The notes under the pieces: generated by a model | Seen by the model: only the letters and a program-made list of their open reading frames with translations | Told to the model about the DNA's origin: nothing | Databases searched by the model: none | Made by a program: the position numbers and the translations under genes | NCBI GenBank assembly: GCA_963833975.1 | Contig: CAWIAB010000004.1 | Span: 434,586 to 498,585 of the forward strand | Direction: 5' to 3' | Length of the DNA: 64,000 nt | Origin: an uncultured Actinomycetota bacterium | GTDB taxonomy: Bacteria; Actinomycetota; Actinomycetes; Propionibacteriales; Nocardioidaceae | Part shown: positions 4,296 to 64,000 of the stretch, piece after piece | Layout of the letters: each line of letters starts with the position of its first letter | How positions within the stretch are numbered: the stretch's first letter is position 1

Positions 4296-5998
4296 TCAGA
4301 ACCGGGCGGGCTCGCGGTACTCGCCCCACTCGGCGCGCAGGGCGTCGCAGATCTCCCCCAGCGTGGCCTCGGCGCGCGCGGCATCGAGCATCGCCGGGAT
4401 CATGTTGTCGCTTGACCGCGCAGCCTCGACCATCCGGCCGAGCGCCTCGTCGACCACTGCCTGGTCGCGGACCTGACGCCGCCCGGTGAGGTCGCGCACC
4501 TGGTCGACCTCGACCTCGTGCGAGACCCGCAGGATCTCGAGGTCATGGGTCACCGAGTCGAGGTGGCAGTTGACGCCGACGACCTTCTTCTCGCCCTTCT
4601 CGAGCGCGACCTGGTACTGGAAGGCCGCCTCGGCGATCTCCGACATGAACCAGCCGTCCTCGATGCCGCGCAGGATGCCGCTCGTCATCGGGCCGATCTC
4701 GTGCTTGCGCTGGTCGCCGCCGCCCATCTCCTTGACCCGGGCGAAGATGGCCTCCGCCTCCGCCTCGAGCCGGTCGGTCAGCGCCTCGACGTACCACGAA
4801 CCGCCGAGCGGGTCGGCGACGTTGACGACGCCGGTCTCCTCCATGATCACCTGCTGGGTGCGCAGGGCGATCTCGGCCGCCTGCTCGCTGGGGAGGGCCA
4901 GCGTCTCGTCGAGGGCGTTGGTGTGCAGGGAGTTCGTGCCCCCGAGTACGGCGGCCAGCGCCTCGACCGCCGTACGCACGACGTTGTTGTACGGCTGCTG
5001 GGCGGTCAGCGAGACGCCGGCGGTCTGGGTGTGGAAGCGCAGCCACTGGGCGCGGTCGGTCTTCGCGCCGTACACGTCACGCATCCAGCGCGCCCAGATC
5101 CGCCGGGCGGCGCGGAACTTCGCGATCTCCTCGAAGAAGTCCAGGTGCGCGTCGAAGAAGAACGACAGGCCCGGCGCGAAGACGTCGACGTCCAGGCCGC
5201 GGGAGAGGCCGAGCTCGACGTACCCGAAGCCGTCGACGAGGGTGAAGGCGAGCTCCTGCGCGGCCGTCGAGCCGGCCTCGCGGATGTGGTAGCCGGAGAC
5301 GCTCAGCGGCTTGTAGTCGGGGATCTCGGCGGCGCAGTACTCCATCAGGTCGCCGATCAGCCGCAGGTGCGGCGCCGGCGGGAACAGCCACTCCTTCTGC
5401 GCGATGTACTCCTTGAAGATGTCGGTCTGCAGCGTGCCGTTGAGCTTGCCGATGTCGGCGCCCTGCCGCTCGGCCGCGACCAGGTACATGCAGAACACCG
5501 GGACGGCCGGGCCGGAGATCGTCATCGAGGTGGTGACGTCCTCGAGCGGGATGTCGCGCGAACAGCGCCTCCATGTCGACCGCGCTGTCGATCGCGACGC
5601 CGCAGTGCCCGACCTCGCCCAGCGCCTGCGGGTCGTCGCTGTCGCGGCCCATCAGGGTCGGCATGTCGAACGCGACGGAGAGCCCGCCGCCGCCGCGACC
5701 GAGGATCATCTTGTAGCGCTCGTTGGTCTGGACGGCGTTGCCGAAGCCGGCGAACTGACGGATCGTCCAGCTGCGCCCGCGGTAGCCGGTGGGGTAGAGG
5801 CCTCGGGTGAACGGGTACTCGCCCGGCCAGCCGATGCGCTCGAAGTCGGGCCGGGTCTCGCCTGGCTCGGGACCGTAGACCGGGTCGACCTCGACCCCGG
5901 ACAGCGTGGTGAAGTCGATGTCACGGACCCGAGAGGCCGCGTAGCGCTGTTCCCAGCGCCGGCGGCCGGCCTCGATGTCGTCGTCCGATGTCAGCCAT
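4296..5998 (-). pseudogene. icmA: isobutyryl-CoA-mutase-type acyl-CoA mutase large (catalytic) subunit without B12 domain, two 1-nt insertions
   Basis: ORF 4296..5525 plus ORF 5077..5709 and upstream frame. Sequence: MADI|DDDIEAGRRRWEQRY...GWPGEYPFTRGLYPTGYRGRSWTIRQFAGFGN...LSVAFDMPTLMG...MEALF|DIPLEDVTTSMTISGPAVPVFCMY...EWGEYREPARF. Breaks are at about 5986 and 5558. 1703 nt = 567 codons + 2, matching the roughly 566-aa IcmA size I recall. Subfamily (Icm versus Hcm or other) is not resolvable here. Confidence 0.8.
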
Positions 5999-28396: not shown

Positions 28397-28417
28397 GTTG
28401 CGTGGTCACGTCGGTCC
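28397..28417 (+). repeat. solitary copy (E1) of the 22-bp GTTGAG...CCGGTCC repeat family, 3 nt after the nucS stop
   Basis: GTTGCGTGGTCACGTCGGTCC. 18/19 identical to 28912..28930 (14-nt perfect core GTGGTCACGTCGGT). About 15/21 identical to the array-unit sense form GTTGAGATGCCACTCCGGTCC. Confidence 0.55.
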
Positions 28418-28469
28418 GGTCCTGCCAGGTTGAAGCGTCACTTCCGTCCACTCTCTGACCGTCGAGGTG

Positions 28470-28871
28470 TCAGTTCGGTACGGCATGGCGCTGGACGAGC
28501 TCGATCGGGTTGCCGTCGAGATCCGCGACCCAGGCCACCCGCAGCGAGCCCTGGAGCCAGTCGTGCGGCTCGGACATCGAGAGGGCCCCCGCCGCCAGCA
28601 GCTCGGCGTAGGCGTGGTCGACGTCCTCGGTCCATAGACAGATCTCCATGGCGTTGCCGTCGGGCGACACGTCCAACCCATGGTCGGACCGCGCGGAAGC
28701 GACGTTCGCGATCCCCAGACAGAACCCGTCGAGACGCAGCTCGACGTGGATGGGCGAGCCTTCTCGAGGGGTCCGGAAGGACTCCTCGAACCCCAATCCG
28801 GTATAGAACGTCACAGACCGCTCGACATCGTCGACGTACATGTTGACCTGGGGACGGTGAAACGGTGCCAC
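28470..28871 (-). CDS. VOC family (glyoxalase/bleomycin-resistance fold) protein
   Basis: GTG at 28871 within ORF 28470..28961: VAPFHRPQVNMYVDDVERSVTFYTGLGFEESF...VAWVADLDGNPIELVQ. Confidence 0.7.
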   Translation of the reverse strand: MAPFHRPQVNMYVDDVERSVTFYTGLGFEESFRTPREGSPIHVELRLDGFCLGIANVASARSDHGLDVSPDGNAMEICLWTEDVDHAYAELLAAGALSMSEPHDWLQGSLRVAWVADLDGNPIELVQRHAVPN

Positions 28872-28911: not shown

Positions 28912-28963
28912 GTTGAGTGGTCACGTCGGTGCAGCAATGAGGGACCGGAGTGACCACTCAACC
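28912..28963. repeat. inverted pair (E2/E3) of the 22-bp repeat family forming a 12-bp-stem hairpin, 6 nt after the stop of the 28970..29869 gene
   Basis: Arms TTGAGTGGTCAC (28913..28924) and GTGACCACTCAA (28950..28961) with a 25-nt spacer. E3 (28942..28963, GGACCGGAGTGACCACTCAACC) is 19/22 to 20/22 identical to units of the 40.1-kb array. Confidence 0.65.
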
Positions 28964-28969
28964 TTAGGG

Positions 28970-29869
28970 TCAGAAGTCGCCGCCGCCGAAGTCGCCACCG
29001 CCGTCGAAACCACCGCCGTCGAAACCACCCCCGTCGAACCCGCCGCCATCGAAACCGCCGCCGTCATAGCCACTACCGTCGCCGCCGGACCCGCTGTCGT
29101 CGTACCCGCCCTGGTCCGAGCCCTGGTCCGAGCCTTGGTCGGAGCCGGCGTCATAACCCGCGTCGTAGCCCTGGTCGTATCCACCTCCGCCGTCGAACAG
29201 CCCACCCATCATGGTGCCGACGAACAACAGCTCCAACGGGAAGAACGCACCGAAATATCCCGCGGTCCACGGCTGGAAAGCCGGTCCTGCCTGCCAGTAC
29301 GGCACCCGCTGGGGCCCCACCATGACCTGGCGGGTCATCGGCTCCGCGCCCGAGGCAATTCGCTCCGCGTCGGCCGCGCAGACCGGCACCTCGCGTGGCG
29401 CCCCGCCCTCGGGCGACCAGGTGATGTCCTTGACCGAGGGACCGTGTTGGGGGTTGAAGAAGCAGGGCGAGCGACGTTGCGGAATCGGCTCGCCGGCTAC
29501 CCGGGCACGCACGCAGGTGACCGAGTATCGGCCATCCTCCAGGATCTCGGTGACGTGGCGGATCTGGTCGGGACGGGTGACGGCGGCGACCGACTCCTTG
29601 GCGGCCTCGTAGCCGTCCAGCGCGCGTTGATAGTCCTGCCTGGCGGTCGCATCGAGCTCGTGCCCCGCCAGGTCGACGTCCAGCTGACGGAGGTCGTCAC
29701 CGAACACCGTGACGTCCTCGTCCGCGGCCCTCTTGACCGCCTCGAGCTGCTCGGCAGAGATCCGCTCCCGCCGCTCCGCAGCCTCCCGGCTGGCGGTCCG
29801 CCCGCGAGACACGGCGCTGGCAATCCCGATGAGGGCGACGACGACCACCACCAGTAGTACCCAGATCAA
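28970..29869 (-). CDS. membrane-anchored protein with Gly/Asp-rich repetitive C-terminus
   Basis: Intact 299-aa ORF (TTG start). N-terminal TM MIWVLLVVVVVALIGIASAV, a second TM near the C-terminus, then (GGGFD)x4. Function unknown. Confidence 0.65.
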   Translation of the reverse strand: MIWVLLVVVVVALIGIASAVSRGRTASREAAERRERISAEQLEAVKRAADEDVTVFGDDLRQLDVDLAGHELDATARQDYQRALDGYEAAKESVAAVTRPDQIRHVTEILEDGRYSVTCVRARVAGEPIPQRRSPCFFNPQHGPSVKDITWSPEGGAPREVPVCAADAERIASGAEPMTRQVMVGPQRVPYWQAGPAFQPWTAGYFGAFFPLELLFVGTMMGGLFDGGGGYDQGYDAGYDAGSDQGSDQGSDQGGYDDSGSGGDGSGYDGGGFDGGGFDGGGFDGGGFDGGGDFGGGDF

Positions 29870-39434: not shown

Positions 39435-39926
39435 CTACAGCACCACCCATTGACGGCCGTCGATCAGCTCTCGTACGGCGTCGAGATGTCCGGCGTGTAC
39501 GGCGGTCTCGGTGATCACATGCATCATCACCGAGCGCAGATCCGGGAACTCCATGCCCCAGCTGGCCCATTCTGGATCGGGCCGCTTCGGAGCGGCGTCC
39601 ATGGCCGTCACCGCCAGGATCTCGTCGGCGCGGCGAATCTCCCCCCGGTACGCCTCTACGACTGCATCGGCGGGCTCGTCCGGCCCGACCAGCCAGTCGC
39701 CGTTCGGCTCCTTCGGAAAGTAGTCGAGCGATTCGCCAGCGACGACGCAGCGAAACCAGTAGTGCTCGTCTGACAACGCCAGATGCTGGACGAGGCCAAG
39801 ACAGCTCCAGCCTGAAGGGAGCACCGGTCGGCGTAGCTGCTCATCCGACAGACCCTCCAGGCTGCCGAGCACATGCCGGCGTTGCGCGTCCAGCTGCCCG
39901 CGGAGTACGGCTCTCTCGCGGCTCAC
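39435..39926 (-). CDS. DinB-family (mycothiol-transferase-like, DUF664) protein
   Basis: Intact 163-aa ORF: LDAQRRHVLGSLEGLSDEQLRRPVLPSGWSCLGLVQHLA...ETAVHAGHLDAVRELIDG. Confidence 0.8.
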   Translation of the reverse strand: MSRERAVLRGQLDAQRRHVLGSLEGLSDEQLRRPVLPSGWSCLGLVQHLALSDEHYWFRCVVAGESLDYFPKEPNGDWLVGPDEPADAVVEAYRGEIRRADEILAVTAMDAAPKRPDPEWASWGMEFPDLRSVMMHVITETAVHAGHLDAVRELIDGRQWVVL

Positions 39927-40071
39927 CGGTGAGGCTCCGTCGTACGGCGAGACGTTGGGCCTGGCCTATGCGTACCAATCGAGTCGACCATCGTGCGTCC
40001 TTCCGTTGTCAGTGTCACCTACCAATCGACGTACGGGACAGGTCCTGATCCGACAGCCGTTGCTGGAAAAC

Positions 40072-40247
40072 GGACCGAACTGGCAGCTCAACCCGGCCGG
40101 ACTGGCATCTCAACCGGACCGGAGTGGCATCTCAACCGGACCGGACTGGCATCTCAAGCGGACCGGAGTGACATCTCAACCGAACCGGAATGACATCTCA
40201 ACCGGACCGGAGTGACATCTCAACCGGAGCCGGACTGGCAGCTCAAT
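40072..40247. repeat. tandem array of eight 22-bp units (consensus + strand GGACCGGACTGGCATCTCAACC)
   Basis: Units at 40072, 40094, 40116, 40138, 40160, 40182, 40204 and 40226, read directly. Variants are TGGCAT / TGACAT / TGGCAG. It overlaps the 3' end of the meaA-like ORF. Confidence 0.9.
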
Positions 40248-42251
40248 CCGGGGCAGGGAGTGGAAGAGGCGGATGATGTTGGTGATCTGGGCGATGATCG
40301 CGGTCAGCCCGAAGTCCTTGGGGGTGAAGACCGCAGCGACGCCCGACGCGATGAGCTGGGCAGCGTCCGCGGCCGGCACGATCCCACCCACCACGACCGG
40401 GATCTCGCCCGCGCCGGCCTCCCGCAGACCTCTCACGATCGCCGGCACCAGCTCCAGATGTGAGCCCGAGAGGATCGAGATCCCGACGCAGTGCACATCC
40501 TCTGCGACTGCGGCCGCCACGATCTCCTCCGGGGTCAACCGGATCCCTTGGTAGATGACCTCGAAGCCGGCGTCTCTGGCCCGGACCGCGACCTGCTCTG
40601 CCCCATTGCTGTGACCGTCCAGCCCGGGCTTGGCGACGAGCAACCGCAGCCGACCCCCGAGCTGTTCACCGGTCTCGCGCACCAGGCTCCTGAGCGCCGT
40701 CAGCTCGGCTCCCGCACCCGGCGCAGTGACGACACCACCTACCCCGGTCGGTGCGCGGTACTCGCCGAACACCTCGCGCAGCACACCCGCCCACTCCCCC
40801 GTCGTCGCCCCGGCTCGGGCGGCCGCGATGGTGGCGGGCATCAGGTTCTCCGCGGTCTTTGCCTGTTCGCGAAGCCGGTCGAGCGCCGTTGCGACGGCCA
40901 CGGCGTTCCGCTCGGCGCGCCAGCGGCCGAGGGAATCCAATGCGGCGCGCTCAGCCTCCGGGTCGGACGCCTGGATCGCGGCGTCGAGGTCCACCGTCAA
41001 CGGCGAGACCTCGCTCTCCACGAACGCGTTGACACCGACCACGATGTCCTCTCCGGACTCGATGCGCGCCAGACGGAGTGCGTGTGATGCCACGAGCGCC
41101 TGCTTGAGGTAGCCGGACTCGACCGCCGCGACCGCTCCGCCCATCGCCTGGATCCGGTCCATCTCGGCGGTGATGGCCTGCACCAGCTCGGCGACCTTCG
41201 CCTCGACCACGCGTGACCCGTCGAAGAGATCGTCGTACTCGAGCAGGTCGGACTCGAAGGCCAGCACCTGCTGAAGGCGCAGGGACCATTGCTGGTCCCA
41301 GGGGCGGGGCAGTCCGAGGGCCTCGTTCCAGGCCGGGAGCTGCACGGCTCGGGCGCGGGCCTCTTTCGACAGGGTCACGCCGAGCATCTCGAGGACGATG
41401 CGCTGGACGTTGTTCTCCGGCTGAGCCTCCGTGAGACCCAGGGAGTTCACCTGCACGCCGTAGCGGAACCGGCGTTGCTTCGTATCCTCGATGCCGTAAC
41501 GCTCACGGGTGAGGCTGTCCCACAGCACCGCGAACGCGCGCATCTTGCACATCTCTTCGACGAAACGCACCCCTGCGTTGACGAAGAACGACATCCGCCC
41601 GACCACCTCGCCGAACCGCGCGGTCGGCACCTGCCCCGAGTCGCGAACGGCATCCAGGACGGCGATCGCCGTGCACAACGCGAAGGCCACCTCCTGGACC
41701 GGCGTCGCGCCAGCCTCCTGTAGGTGGTAGCTACAGACGTTGATGGGGTTCCACTGCGGCATCTCCGCCACGGTGTAGGTGATCAGATCCGTCGTCAGCC
41801 GAAGTGACGCCTCCGGGGGGAATACATACGTCCCCCGCGAGAGGTACTCCTTGATGATGTCGTTCTGGGTCGTCCCGGTCAGCAGCCGCGGGTCGGCGCC
41901 CTGCTCCTGCGCCACGATCTGGTAGAGCGCCAGCAGCCACATCGCGGTGGCGTTGATCGTCATGGACGTGTTCGTCTCGGCGAGCGGGATCGAGTCGAAG
42001 AGCCGGCGCATCTCCCCGAGGTGCGGTATCGGCACACCGACCCTGCCTACCTCGCCGCGAGCCAGTGGCGAGTCGGGGTCGTAGCCGGTCTGTGTCGGCA
42101 GGTCGAATGCGACCGAGAGACCGGTCTGACCCTTTGCGAGGTTGCCCCGGTACAGCGTGTTCGAGCCTTGCGCGGAGCTGTGGCCGGCGTAGGTGCGCAT
42201 CACCCACGGCTGGTCACGCTGTGCCGCTTTCGGCTGCGGTTCCGCGGTCAT
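40176..42251 (-). CDS. ecm: ethylmalonyl-CoA mutase-type (MeaA/Ecm) B12-dependent acyl-CoA mutase, fused catalytic and B12-binding domains
   Basis: Intact 691-aa ORF. PWVMRTYAGHSSAQGSNTLYRGNLAKGQTGLSVAFDLPTQTGYDPDSPLARGEVGRVGVP...NTSMTINATAMWLLALY closely matches MeaA as I recall it. The C-terminal DxHxxG B12 motif (GLDGHSNG) is present. The last roughly 24 codons and the stop are encoded by the repeat array. Confidence 0.85.
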   Translation of the reverse strand: MTAEPQPKAAQRDQPWVMRTYAGHSSAQGSNTLYRGNLAKGQTGLSVAFDLPTQTGYDPDSPLARGEVGRVGVPIPHLGEMRRLFDSIPLAETNTSMTINATAMWLLALYQIVAQEQGADPRLLTGTTQNDIIKEYLSRGTYVFPPEASLRLTTDLITYTVAEMPQWNPINVCSYHLQEAGATPVQEVAFALCTAIAVLDAVRDSGQVPTARFGEVVGRMSFFVNAGVRFVEEMCKMRAFAVLWDSLTRERYGIEDTKQRRFRYGVQVNSLGLTEAQPENNVQRIVLEMLGVTLSKEARARAVQLPAWNEALGLPRPWDQQWSLRLQQVLAFESDLLEYDDLFDGSRVVEAKVAELVQAITAEMDRIQAMGGAVAAVESGYLKQALVASHALRLARIESGEDIVVGVNAFVESEVSPLTVDLDAAIQASDPEAERAALDSLGRWRAERNAVAVATALDRLREQAKTAENLMPATIAAARAGATTGEWAGVLREVFGEYRAPTGVGGVVTAPGAGAELTALRSLVRETGEQLGGRLRLLVAKPGLDGHSNGAEQVAVRARDAGFEVIYQGIRLTPEEIVAAAVAEDVHCVGISILSGSHLELVPAIVRGLREAGAGEIPVVVGGIVPAADAAQLIASGVAAVFTPKDFGLTAIIAQITNIIRLFHSLPRIELPVRLRLRCHSGPVEMSFRFG

Positions 42252-60754: not shown

Positions 60755-60976
60755 TTACTTTGCAGCAGCAGTCTTCTTGGCGTAGCGGGCTTGGAAGCGC
60801 GCAACGCGACCGCCGGTGTCGAGGATCTTCTGCTTGCCGGTGTAGAACGGGTGGCAGTTCGAGCAGACGTCGGCATGCATCGTGCCGCTGGTCGCCGTAC
60901 TGCGGGTCGTGAACGTGTTTCCACAGGTACAGGTGACCTGCGTCTCCGCGTACGCGGGGTGGATGTCCTTCTTCAT
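60755..60976 (-). CDS. rpmE: 50S ribosomal protein L31 (Zn-ribbon type)
   Basis: ATG at 60976: [27 protein letters not shown]...[17 protein letters not shown]. The upstream part of ORF 60755..61222 reads through the repeats and is not coding. Confidence 0.9.
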
Positions 60977-61126
60977 GGGTGTTCCTCTCGAGTATCGGCC
61001 GCTGGGTCGCCACCACCGAGTCAGCGGGACGTGAACCAGAACCATCGGAGATTGTGCCACTCCTACCCCCTCCAAGCCCAAATCCCCTGCCAATATTCCC
61101 TCCCGCCGAGTCCCCCTCCACCCCCC

Positions 61127-61334
61127 GTTGAGATGCCACTCCGATCGTGTTGAGATGCCACTCCGGACGTGTTGAAATGCCGATCCAGTTGGCATCTCAA
61201 CCGGACCGGACTGGCATCTCAACCAGACCGGACTGGCATCTCAACCAGACCGGACTGGCATCTCAACCAGACCGGACTGGCATCTCAACCAGACCGGACT
61301 GGCATCTCAACCGGACCGGACTGGCATCTCAACG
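61127..61334. repeat. bipartite array of the 22-bp repeat: about 3 inverted units followed by 7 direct units
   Basis: Inverted units: 61127..61148, 61149..61170 and 61171..61188 (GTTGAGATGCCACTCCG...). Direct units: a partial unit at 61189..61202, then 61203, 61225, 61247, 61269, 61291 and 61313 (each 22 bp). The four at 61225..61312 are identical (AGACCGGACTGGCATCTCAACC). The last unit supplies the gpx stop codon. Confidence 0.9.
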
Positions 61335-61817
61335 AGGGACAGGGAGGAGGGACTCGATGGTGGAGGTGAGGTCGGCGGGCTCGGTGGAGGGACCGCTGCG
61401 TTGGACGACCTGGCCGGCGGGGTCGACGAGGAACTTGGTGAAGTTCCACTCGATGGCCTCACCCGAGTCGGCCGAGGCCTGGCTACGCAGCCAGGAGAAC
61501 AGCGGATGCGCATCCTCGCCATTGACCTCGACCTTGGCGAACATCGGGAACTCGACGCCGTACGTCAGCGAGCAGAACTCCTGGATCTCGGCCTCAGAAC
61601 CCGGCTCCTGGTGACCGAACTGGTCGCACGGGAAGCCCAGCACGACGAGGCCGCGGTCGGCGTACTTCTCGTGGAGCTGCTCGAGCCCCTCGTACTGCGG
61701 AGTCATCCCGCACTTGCTGGCCGTGTTGACCACCAGCATGACCTTGCCCTGGTAGTCCGACAGCGGTTGCTCGGCTCCGTCGATCGTCGTGGCGGTGAAG
61801 TCGTAGGCGGTGGTCAC
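61329..61817 (-). CDS. glutathione peroxidase
   Basis: GTG at 61817 within ORF 61329..62090: VTTAYDFTATTIDGAEQPLSDYQGKVMLVVNTASKCGMTPQYEGLEQLHEKY...GFPCDQFGHQEPG...WNFTKFLVD. Confidence 0.85.
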   Translation of the reverse strand: MTTAYDFTATTIDGAEQPLSDYQGKVMLVVNTASKCGMTPQYEGLEQLHEKYADRGLVVLGFPCDQFGHQEPGSEAEIQEFCSLTYGVEFPMFAKVEVNGEDAHPLFSWLRSQASADSGEAIEWNFTKFLVDPAGQVVQRSGPSTEPADLTSTIESLLPVPR

Positions 61818-61827
61818 CGTCGCCTCG

Positions 61828-63885
61828 TCAGTCTTCGTCGGAGGAGCCGCGGAGCCCGGACACGCTCGGCGTGGTCCGGTTGACCTCCATGAGGAACTCC
61901 ACGTTGCTCTTGGTCTGCCGCAGCTTCTGCAACAGCAGCTCCAGGGCCTGTTGACCCTCGAGGGCTGAGAGCACTCGGCGGAGCTTCCACACGATCTGGA
62001 GCTCGTCCTTGGCCAACAGCAGCTCTTCGCGTCTGGTCCCCGACGCGTCGACGTCGATAGCCGGGAAGATCCGCTTGTCGGCGTACTCACGGCGCAGCCT
62101 GAGCTCCATGTTCCCGGTGCCCTTGAACTCCTCGAAGATGACCTCGTCCATCTTGGACCCGGTCTCGATCAGCGCCGTCGCGAGGATGGTCAGCGAGCCG
62201 CCGTCCTCGATGTTGCGTGCCGCTCCGAAGAAGCGCTTCGGCGGGTACAGCGCGGACGAGTCGACACCACCGGACAGGATGCGCCCACTCGCAGGCGCGG
62301 CCAGGTTGTAGGCGCGGCCCAGCCGGGTGATCGAGTCGAGGAGCACGACAACGTCGTGGCCCAGCTCGACCAGTCGCTTGGCCCGCTCGATGGCCAGCTC
62401 GGCCACGGTCGTGTGGTCGGTCGCGGGACGGTCGAAGGTCGAGGCGATGACCTCGCCCTTGACGGCGCGCTGCATGTCGGTGACCTCTTCGGGCCGCTCG
62501 TCGACGAGCACGACCATCAGATGGCATTCAGGGTTGTTCGTCGTGATCGCGTTGGCGATCGACTGGAGCACGATCGTCTTGCCGGCCTTGGAGGGGCTCA
62601 CGATCAGTCCGCGCTGGCCCTTTCCGACCGGCGCAACGATGTCGATGAGCCGCCCGATCAGCTGGTTGGGCTCGGTCTCGAGACGGAGCCGGTCTGCGGC
62701 GTACAGCGGCGTGAGCTTCGCGAACTCCACGCGGTTGCGGGCCGCGTCCGGCTCGGCGCCGTTGACCGTGTCGATGCGCACCATCGGGTTGAACTTCTCC
62801 CGGCGGTCGGTGTCCTGGCTCTGCCGAACCATGCCGGTGATGGCATCGCCCTTGCGGAGCCCGAACTTGCGGACCATCGACAGCGAGACGTAGACGTCGG
62901 TCGGTCCGGGCAGGTAGCCGGTCGTACGGACGAACGCGTAGTTGTCGAGCAGGTCCAAGATCCCGGCTGCGGGGATCAGCACGTCGTCCTCGTTGACCTG
63001 CGGCTCGCCGTCGCTGCCGCCTACGCGTGGCTTGTCGCGGTCACGGTAGCGGTCCCGGCTGCGGCTGCGGCGACGGCTGTTGCGGCTGCCGGCCTGCGAG
63101 TCGCGATCGGCACCCTGCTGGGCCTCGCGGCTCTGGCTGGTGCCCTGGCCCGCCGGCCGGGAGTCCGAGCCCTGGCTGCTGCCCTGGTTCCGGCTGGACG
63201 GCGACTGGCTGGACTGTCCTTGACCGGACTGTCCTGCGCCGGACTGACCACCCGCCTGCGCTGCGACATGCTGCTCGCGGGCATGCTGCGCCTGGTCACT
63301 GCGGTCCTGAGCACTGTTGTCCTGCTGGCTTGGGCTGCGGTCGCTGCCCTGACCGTCGTGGCCGCTCCGTCCGTCGGCACTCTGGCCACCGGCGAACGGC
63401 TTGTTGCGGTCATGCACCTGCGGCTCCTGCCGGCTGCCGCTGCTGCGGCGCTCTGCGGAGGTGCTGGTACGGCGGGAGATGGAGCGACTGGCTTCCGGAT
63501 CAGCGGCGGTAGGCGCCGCCTCGTCCGTGTCCGGCTCACTTGGTGTCCGCGACGCGCCAGACGTGCGTCGACCGGACGTAGTGCGGGCTGAGGAGCTTGG
63601 CGCGGACGTCCTACTGGTCGACGCGCCTTGGCCCGCCGATGTCTGGCCCGAGCCCTGGCCCGAGCTCTGGCCGGAGCGCTGGGCCGAGGTGATGGCGTCG
63701 ACGAGCGCGCTCTTGCGCATCCCCGTCGTGCCTTTGATGCCGAGCGTGCCGGCAAGGTTCTTGAGATCCGACATCAACATCTTGTTGAGGCCGACCTGCT
63801 TCCCGCGGCTCGTTGAGCCCGCCTCTGCAGTCTCTGCGGAGGCGGAACTGGCGCCGGAGGCGGCGGTGTCGGTGGTTTGGGTCAC
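61828..63885 (-). CDS. rho: transcription termination factor Rho with long Arg/Ser/Gln/Gly-rich N-terminal insertion
   Basis: ORF 61828..63951; preferred GTG at 63885 follows GGAAGGA. C-terminal RecA-type core (GQRGLIVSPSKAGKT..., DSITRLGRAYN). The low-complexity N-terminal domain is typical of Actinomycetota. Confidence 0.9.
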   Translation of the reverse strand: MTQTTDTAASGASSASAETAEAGSTSRGKQVGLNKMLMSDLKNLAGTLGIKGTTGMRKSALVDAITSAQRSGQSSGQGSGQTSAGQGASTSRTSAPSSSARTTSGRRTSGASRTPSEPDTDEAAPTAADPEASRSISRRTSTSAERRSSGSRQEPQVHDRNKPFAGGQSADGRSGHDGQGSDRSPSQQDNSAQDRSDQAQHAREQHVAAQAGGQSGAGQSGQGQSSQSPSSRNQGSSQGSDSRPAGQGTSQSREAQQGADRDSQAGSRNSRRRSRSRDRYRDRDKPRVGGSDGEPQVNEDDVLIPAAGILDLLDNYAFVRTTGYLPGPTDVYVSLSMVRKFGLRKGDAITGMVRQSQDTDRREKFNPMVRIDTVNGAEPDAARNRVEFAKLTPLYAADRLRLETEPNQLIGRLIDIVAPVGKGQRGLIVSPSKAGKTIVLQSIANAITTNNPECHLMVVLVDERPEEVTDMQRAVKGEVIASTFDRPATDHTTVAELAIERAKRLVELGHDVVVLLDSITRLGRAYNLAAPASGRILSGGVDSSALYPPKRFFGAARNIEDGGSLTILATALIETGSKMDEVIFEEFKGTGNMELRLRREYADKRIFPAIDVDASGTRREELLLAKDELQIVWKLRRVLSALEGQQALELLLQKLRQTKSNVEFLMEVNRTTPSVSGLRGSSDED

Positions 63886-64000
63886 GTGAGGTCCTTCCCA
63901 CGTCTGGTGCGCAGTGAAGATTGCGCCCATTGATAGAGGTGAAATGCTCATGCGAATGCTGTGCTGATGCGATCAGCGTGGAATGCCGCGTTGGAAGTAC

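Follow-up and report, generated by a model that had tools for sequence, protein, structure and literature searches.

Judged from its sequence, the 22-bp repeat array between gpx and rpmE is a member of an undescribed family of short repeats that, in one group of Nocardioidaceae, are placed at the stop codons of genes or directly on them. The reading that we favor, at somewhat better than even confidence and with the function inferred, is that of a gene-end repeat family of the REP/BIME or MIRU kind, in which a 60-120-bp hairpin around the gpx stop codon would serve as a transcript-end or insulator structure that evolves like a variable-number tandem repeat (VNTR). Here, the window means the whole 64,000-nt stretch of DNA analyzed; coordinates refer to it unless a relative's contig (labels beginning with L) is named.

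A first-pass annotation of the window had described a bipartite 22-bp array between gpx and rpmE, and this description was borne out: seven direct units (61180-61333, minus strand) abut three inverted ones (61127-61192). Tandem Repeats Finder placed the direct side at 61190-61333 (period 22, 6.5 copies, 98% matches, score 274) and the inverted side at 61127-61181 (period 22, 2.5 copies, 90% matches), and a repeat search returned seven direct copies spaced 22 bp and three inverted copies of 100, 91, and 68% identity. The features of the array and its surroundings are as follows.

61828..63951, minus strand: rho, 707 aa, preceding gpx in the same direction
61329..61817, minus strand: gpx, glutathione peroxidase (GSHPx match), 162 aa, GTG start, 10 nt after the rho stop
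61329..61331, minus strand: gpx stop codon TGA, within GT-TGA-G of the first unit
61180..61333, minus strand: direct arm, seven 22-bp units in gpx sense orientation (GTTGAGATGCCAGTCCGGTCYG); Tandem Repeats Finder, repeat search, and PWM scan
61180-61201, minus strand: junction unit of the direct arm; repeat search
61127..61192, plus strand: inverted arm, three opposite units (61127-61148, 61149-61170, and the degenerate 61171-61192), where the sense RNA reads ..CGGAGUGGCAUCUCAAC; repeat searches and PWM scan
61171..61201, minus strand: junction mini-hairpin with an 11-bp stem and a 9-nt loop, GTTGAGATGCC-AACTGGATC-GGCATTTCAAC in the sense strand
61120..61340, minus strand: whole predicted RNA hairpin; RNA folding
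61061..61126, minus strand: G-rich tract running from the array to the rpmE promoter-like element, its first G-run pairing with the end of gpx
61051..61060, minus strand: extended -10-like element (TGnCACAAT), invariant GTGGCACAAT, immediately ahead of the L31 leader; putative rpmE promoter
60997..61045, minus strand: L31-Actinobacteria ribosomal protein leader, RF03158, 43.1 bits (gathering score 35)
60755..60976, minus strand: rpmE, ribosomal protein L31

On the minus strand the order is thus rho, gpx, array, G-rich tract, L31 leader, rpmE, prfA. The finer anatomy also agrees with what had been noticed at first pass. The junction, described as repeat-N9-repeat, reads GTTGAAATGCC (61171-61181), nine intervening nucleotides, and GGCATCTCAAC (61191-61201); the imperfect palindrome of roughly 60 bp has arms of 55 nt (61127-61181 and 61191-61245) that are 84% complementary across a 9-nt gap; and the four identical central units lie at 61224-61311, each GTTGAGATGCCAGTCCGGTCTG, with ..TCCG variants on the flanks. 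Likewise, the array does supply the gpx stop codon, as had been stated: the ORF ends ...LLPVPR and then meets the TGA at 61329-61331 (minus strand), inside the core of the first unit (61322-61333).

The same unit recurs elsewhere. It consists of a conserved 12-nt core, GTTGAG-NNG-NCA, followed by a variable linker of about 10 nt (giving the 22-bp period) or about 20 nt (a 32-bp variant). Allowing at most one mismatch, the window contains 16 copies of the core TGGCATCTCAAC, where shuffles predict 0.17. A position weight matrix (PWM) built from the units and applied, at a shuffle-derived threshold, to the 64-kb window and to the contigs of relatives found four window loci and more in the relatives, of which one has three in about 35 kb. 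Every locus in the window and in that relative lies at the 3' end of a gene, and some units overlap the last codons. Units occur singly, as a unit/inverted-unit hairpin, or as a head-to-tail array. Besides the gpx-rpmE array, the window holds the following family features.

40071..40247, minus strand: second array, eight direct degenerate units, sense-oriented after meaA
40176-42251, minus strand: meaA ORF (ethylmalonyl-CoA mutase), reaching about 3.5 units into that array
28912..28962, minus strand: single sense unit (28941-28962) and, inverted, a partial one (28912-28933), which together make a hairpin whose stem is perfect over 13 bp
28397..28482, plus strand: three degenerate sense units at 32-bp spacing, from 3 nt after the nucS stop (28393)

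The position of the unit relative to the gene end is narrowly set. In all eight independent gene contexts (gpx, meaA, qcrB on L014, a glycosyltransferase gene on L018, nucS, a 299-aa gene, rpmE on L022, and an oxidoreductase gene on L026), the sense unit starts about -25 to +26 nt from the stop codon; at the 299-aa gene, for example, it follows 7 nt past the stop (28970-28972). The stop codon itself lies inside a unit for gpx in the window, L022, and L027 (there the second unit), for qcrB on L014, and on L018 and L026 (TAG). Direct arrays are oriented like the upstream gene in five of five cases, and they sit between co-directional genes, namely gpx-rpmE and meaA-MST in the window and again in L026. 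Two high-GC metagenome contigs extend the pattern: L014 carries five units after qcrB, whose TGA is in the first unit (GGT TGA GAT), and L018 carries an array after a glycosyltransferase gene, whose TGA is in a degenerate first unit. Further unit/inverted-unit hairpins follow rpmE in L022 and, between convergent genes, lie at the TAG stop in L026.

Several local observations accompany these loci. The 32-bp-period variant (L023 748-1062; window 28397-28482) carries an extra 10 nt, GCTGCGTCYG; the two periods differ by about one helical turn. The protein of the 299-aa gene, which has no Pfam match, ends in a low-complexity C-terminal tail made from in-frame 15-bp and 12-bp repeats (GGGFD, GSDQ; window 28973-29150), and the family unit comes after the stop codon that closes this tail. 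On L014 (3291-3634), the five direct units and at least three inverted ones do not abut and have a 168-nt spacer between them, which resembles the layout of a REPIN or MITE; the inverted block is cut by the end of the contig.

The first-pass annotation had also pointed to a degenerate array at 40.1 kb, and Tandem Repeats Finder indeed reports the same unit at 40071-40251 (8.1 copies, 86% matches). In four relatives, MeaA (83-89% identical) has a unit-encoded tail, ..PVEMPLRSG*, ..PVEVPVRSG*, or ..PVEAPSG*, and the units are visible in the DNA after meaA in L025 and L026, where the array is orthologous to that of the window. The window MeaA tail, ..SLPRIELPVRLRLRCHSGPVEMSFRFG* (40176-40247), makes the protein 691 aa long, against 657-678 aa in relatives; it runs about 3.5 units into the array because the first spacing is 23 bp, not 22 bp, which puts the usual unit-2 TGA out of frame. 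Beyond this array, two copies of TACCAATCGA, about 47 bp apart (39972-40033), lie before the start of a mycothiol S-transferase/DinB-family gene (39435-39926) and may be an operator.

The relatives compared next were reached by way of homologues of Gpx and MeaA, and the MeaA matches assign the host to Nocardioidaceae. At the gpx-rpmE site, a bipartite array is found in four lineages (the window, L022, L024, and L027) whose Gpx proteins are 70-79% identical, and other relatives carry reduced or variant forms.

Window, Gpx reference: 7 direct and 3 inverted units; the first unit holds the stop
L022, Gpx 79%: 5.5 direct and about 6 inverted units; the first unit holds the stop (CAT TGA GAT)
L024, Gpx 79%: 4 direct and at least 7 inverted units, up to the contig end
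L027, Gpx 70%: 3 direct and about 2.5 inverted units; unit 1 is read through (..GEMPSWSG*) and unit 2 holds the stop
L023, Gpx 79%: direct array, 32-bp period
L008, Gpx 72%: one unit
L009, Gpx 71%: unit-like relics only, in a 157-bp spacer

The junction hairpin, GTTGAGATGCC-AACYGGATC-GGCAYKTCAAC, is near-identical in the window, L022, and L024. An assembly artifact, the case that the first pass had named as fatal to its description, is unlikely, because four relatives, each assembled independently from metagenomes, have repeats of this family at the corresponding site, and three of the four (L022, L024, and L027) repeat the bipartite architecture. The comparison of array structure that it had proposed shows copy number to vary (7+3, 5.5+6, 4 plus at least 7, and 3+2.5), as read between lineages and not among strains of one species; its VNTR interpretation fits this variation.

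The gene order, by contrast with the array, is stable. The hint that gpx might be an insertion tied to the array proved wrong: rho-gpx-rpmE-prfA is ancestral in all relatives examined, being present in L008, L009, L022, and L027, which makes the place of gpx unrelated to the array. To the question of whether gpx stands here in relatives lacking the array, L009 answers that it does, although L009 is not a clean empty site, given its degenerate unit-like relics. This gene order occurs both with and without arrays, so the array has been added to an operon boundary that is itself stable. Downstream, the array lies upstream of GTGGCACAAT and the L31 leader in the window, L022, and L027 (the L024 contig ends inside the array), and both elements are kept in all four lineages having that region (the window, L022, L027, and L009), array or none. 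This conservation with or without the array suggests that rpmE has its own promoter, as its upstream sequence makes it appear.

Two further observations concern this interval. The invariant AGGAGTGGCACAATCTCC at the start of the rpmE promoter and leader (61051-61070) resembles the inverted-arm unit CGGAGTGGCAYYTCAAC (61127-61170), and it is also present in L022, L027, and the array-less L009; the resemblance may be coincidental, or it may mean that a degenerate unit was exapted as a promoter or that this sequence seeded the inverted arm. The sense-strand tract rich in G-runs (61061-61126, minus strand), which is potentially G-quadruplex-forming, is conserved in relatives (L022 1264-1310; L008 6540-6641), and in L008 it ends in extreme poly-G that may be partly a sequencing artifact.

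RNA folding predicts a very stable hairpin for the bipartite array. The sense RNA of 61100-61345 has a predicted free energy of -166 kcal/mol (z = -13.9), and the base of the hairpin is closed by pairing between the final codons of gpx (CCCTC) and the G-run that follows the array, which puts the gpx stop codon inside the stem. In four of four lineages, the sense RNA folds better than the antisense RNA and with more G·U pairs.

Window (61120-61340): sense dG -155, antisense -124 kcal/mol; 8 sense and 2 antisense G·U pairs
L022: sense dG -195, antisense -180 kcal/mol; 16 sense and 9 antisense G·U pairs
L024: sense dG -168, antisense -126 kcal/mol; 24 sense and 12 antisense G·U pairs
L027: sense dG -68, antisense -48 kcal/mol; 12 sense and 2 antisense G·U pairs

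Further, across the 119 nt around the junction in three lineages, a consensus of 50 pairs is 94.7% paired, and five pairs have changed on both sides; the observed values were reached in only 4-13 of 500 shuffles, and slid registers were 21-50% paired. This modest but consistent signal from three sequences suggests that the complementarity of the arms has been maintained, most simply in the transcript or single strand of sense polarity. Strand-biased mutation could account for part of the G·U asymmetry, and the complementarity could be kept by conversion between the arms and not by selection. The core is also identical in the direct arms of the four lineages, beyond what pairing requires, a comparison that carries an ascertainment bias; this extra conservation hints at either sequence-specific recognition or gene conversion between loci. 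Among Rfam covariance models, none reaches its gathering score at the array, and only the neighboring L31 leader passes; the array matches models of eukaryotic miRNA-precursor hairpins below threshold (52 bits, where the gathering score is 230), which reflects generic hairpin shape. For the direct-only array at 40 kb, shuffled sequences fold about as well as the array itself (z = -1.4). Such chance-level folding of the direct-only arrays (meaA, 40 kb) indicates that hairpin formation is not a universal role of the repeat family.

These observations can be joined into a scenario for the gpx-rpmE site. An ancestral unit/inverted-unit hairpin would have arisen right after the gpx stop within the rho-gpx-rpmE-prfA operon, both arms would then have expanded by slippage or unequal exchange, and each arm would have been homogenized separately, giving species-specific linkers and identical interior units. 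The rho-gpx transcript would form an imperfect hairpin of 60-120 bp, with the gpx stop enclosed at its base, that could act as a terminator, a 3'-exonuclease barrier, an RNase III processing site, or a combination of these, and that would insulate rpmE and its autoregulatory L31 leader from rho-gpx read-through, while the copy number of the array drifts in a VNTR-like manner. The sequences and folding comparisons show the anatomy and dispersal of the units, their orientation and closeness to stop codons, their conservation at orthologous sites, the covariation of the arms, and the better folding of the sense strand; from these we infer that the hairpin may form in vivo and that the array may terminate, stabilize, or insulate the transcript. 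Of the strong bidirectional terminator or insulator once suggested for the array, the terminator or insulator part fits, given the folding z-score above and the position of the array, which has the gpx stop on one side and the promoter-like element of rpmE with its L31 leader on the other; "bidirectional" can be dropped, since gpx and rpmE run in the same direction. No U-tract lies 3' of the hairpin, where there is instead the G-rich tract (GGGGGGTGGAGGGGG), and a simple terminator scan of the minus strand found no terminator-like site at the array.

An unlikely alternative is that the array is a functionless minisatellite, selfish or neutral, which spreads by slippage, gene conversion, and occasional transposition to tolerated positions after stop codons, with the hairpin and the stop overlap as by-products. 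Copy number is indeed free to differ between lineages, identical interior units point to recent homogenization, the contigs of relatives break inside arrays (L018, L023, L024, and L025), and the C-termini produced are haphazard, with MeaA in the window longer by about 25 aa after a 1-nt change in spacing and Gpx in L027 longer by 8 aa. Yet the arrays persist at the same two sites although the neutral intergenic DNA of these lineages is no longer alignable, the bipartite architecture and its junction hairpin have been retained with compensatory changes that keep the arms complementary, and the sense orientation of the five direct arrays is strict.

Doubtful, too, is a reading in which the units are primarily binding sites for a trans-acting factor (a DNA roadblock or nucleoid protein, a mobilizing RAYT-like Y1 transposase, or an RNA-binding protein) and the hairpin is secondary. 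It would account for the retention of non-folding, direct-only arrays at the orthologous meaA site in at least four lineages, for periods of 22 and 32 bp that lie about one helical turn apart, and for a core, GTTGAG-NNG-NCA, that is conserved across paralogous loci and lineages while linkers have diverged, a contrast inflated by the fact that units were found by their core. Nevertheless, no candidate binder gene is linked to any unit locus, the arrays stand at unrelated housekeeping genes with their orientation set by the upstream gene, and the G·U-type asymmetry and compensatory changes in the arms are typical of pairing in RNA or single strands. The iteron or protein-binding array considered at first pass is unsupported on similar grounds: the units are dispersed at 3' ends of unrelated housekeeping genes and locked to their direction, the arms show RNA-type asymmetry and compensatory change, and there is no replication context. 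Iterons are 17-22-bp direct repeats beside a replication initiator gene or origin, whereas here there is no rep or dnaA context; the neighbors of the array are rho, gpx, rpmE, and prfA, and other arrays follow meaA, qcrB, nucS, and others. More speculative, and rather improbable in our estimation, is a narrower proposal, in which the sequence of the 12-nt core would itself mark gene ends for a dedicated factor of this Nocardioidaceae clade, either a polar roadblock on DNA or a protein that processes or terminates RNA at the 3' end. The number of units would tune the strength of the signal, and the gpx-rpmE array would be an especially strong boundary. If true, this would amount to sequence-specific, factor-dependent 3'-end definition in bacteria, a new kind of gene-end signal.

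We give least credence to a role at the level of translation, in which a stable structure on the stop codon would stall terminating ribosomes and tune the yield of the upstream protein, or the units would ensure termination in three frames. Work by Liang, Rudd and Deutscher from 2015 reportedly found that E. coli REP elements within about 15 nt of a stop codon stall terminating ribosomes, via tmRNA. Here, the first base of a unit falls -25 to +26 nt from the stop codon, which is often inside the unit, the base of the hairpin pairs the last gpx codons, and each 22-nt unit has a TGA, so that three consecutive units offer a stop in every frame. This role leaves the retention of structureless, direct-only arrays unexplained, however, and the ATG of the core is not conserved (GTG, CTG, ACG, and GCG variants occur), which makes a reinitiation signal unlikely.

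Other candidates were set aside. A stop-restart signal, UGAGAUG, was dropped for the same non-conserved AUG; a tRNA 3'-end mimic (..GCCA), since it is not retained in unit variants; HAIR and CIRCE operators, for wrong spacing or sequence; PhoP 11-nt direct repeats and the DasR dre site, after their likeness was considered by eye; a Rho rut site, the sense RNA being G-rich; complementarity to 16S helix 45, which concerns only the 32-bp variant over about 11 nt; and a promoter array, as there is no -10-like hexamer with A2/T6 and a scan of the array found no promoter-like sites. A sigma-54 -24 element was dropped because sigma-54 is not known from Actinobacteria. A site conserved across phyla was also considered. 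Scans of genome collections and metagenomes for two adjacent cores returned arrays in unrelated phyla, with L014 and L018 as the only true relatives. The others are 21-24-bp arrays that share the core TGRCATCTCAAC and otherwise nothing, in Sphingobacteriales (L003, L007, and L020), in Mariniblastus-like contigs (L006, L011, L016, and L021), in a Pyrinomonadaceae contig (L004), and in L001, L010, and L013, with low-GC contigs among the matches. Chance is the probable explanation, since nothing is alike beyond the core that the search pattern imposed, periods and gene contexts differ, and the count is near the expectation from a very large pool of tandem arrays. In a Micrococcales MAG (L005 / L019), the start codon of a minus-strand ORF that is AAA ATPase-like by eye is immediately preceded by three repeats of 23 bp (ACATCTCAACATGGTTCT.., 4913-4970); these may be an operator array unrelated to the gpx-rpmE family. 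A scan of viral sequences for two adjacent cores and a search of the translated array against a protein database each gave no match, and a literature search for the unit sequence returned unrelated primers only, with no paper giving the unit in a relevant context.

Returning to the gene-end hairpin reading, the family can be set against known repeat classes. With the REP and BIME elements of enterobacteria and pseudomonads, for which roles as mRNA 3' stabilizers, terminator-like elements, and translation modulators near stops have been proposed, it shares short, dispersed units at gene 3' ends that form mRNA hairpins and that occur singly, as inverted pairs, or in clusters. Three aspects differ. 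First, a REP unit is an imperfect palindrome of 20-40 nt that folds alone, whereas the present unit has only a 4-bp CCAG/CTGG self-complement and needs a second, inverted unit to make a hairpin. Second, BIME clusters alternate in orientation, while blocks of three to seven same-orientation units here abut one inverted block. Third, the present units form long, spacer-less head-to-tail arrays that overlap coding ends and supply stop codons. MIRU elements are likewise actinobacterial, tandem, intergenic within operons, oriented with transcription, overlapping flanking codons at their ends, and variable in copy number (PMC3184786, PMC12548453); the present family is like them in arrangement, orientation, and codon overlap, and its copy number differs between lineages. 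MIRUs, though, are 40-100 bp long, with small ORFs coupled to the downstream start codon and no head-to-head arrays (PMC3184786, PMC12548453), whereas the present units measure 22 or 32 bp (not multiples of three), overlap the upstream stop in place of the downstream start, and have no sequence similarity to MIRU. A mini-ORF, ATG..TGA (MPVRSG), does exist in the 22-nt unit, but its ATG is not conserved in variants and it does not overlap the downstream start.

The BrickBuilt minisatellite-MITE of Porphyromonas gingivalis is a spacer-less 23-nt tandem repeat, intergenic and species-restricted, with many dispersed copies per genome (PMC4596501); its structure includes leader and tail subunits and inverted-repeat ends, its distance from genes is 49-591 nt, and it contains promoters (PMC4596501). 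The spacer-less 22-bp arrays recall this element, but their units abut or overlap stop codons and the array has no promoter-like sites in our scan, and inspection of the array ends by eye found no shared leader, tail, or TIR modules and no duplication of the MITE kind. In the searchable text of the catalogues of bacterial stem-loop sequence families (PMC2267715, PMC1590033), no actinobacterial family with the present unit was found.

Intrinsic terminators, including the U-tract-less hairpins proposed for Actinobacteria, share with the gpx-rpmE array a GC-rich hairpin directly after the stop codon at an operon boundary, but the array has no U-tract, its stem is 5-10 times longer and built of repeats, and the stop codon lies within that stem. 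Canonical U-tract terminators are, to our knowledge, largely missing from Actinobacteria, and the way in which transcripts end in this group is debated. The repeat family is a specific candidate, open to direct testing, for an element that ends or insulates transcripts, one that is placed at stop codons, locked to gene direction, found at the same sites across genus-level divergence, and capable of forming co-varying predicted hairpins. Its arrays break short-read assemblies, and housekeeping enzymes (Gpx, MeaA, and QcrB) routinely take their stop codons and C-terminal tails from its units, which affects gene annotation. As part of a conserved, gene-end-locked, stop-donating repeat family, the gpx-rpmE array is more than a lone VNTR.
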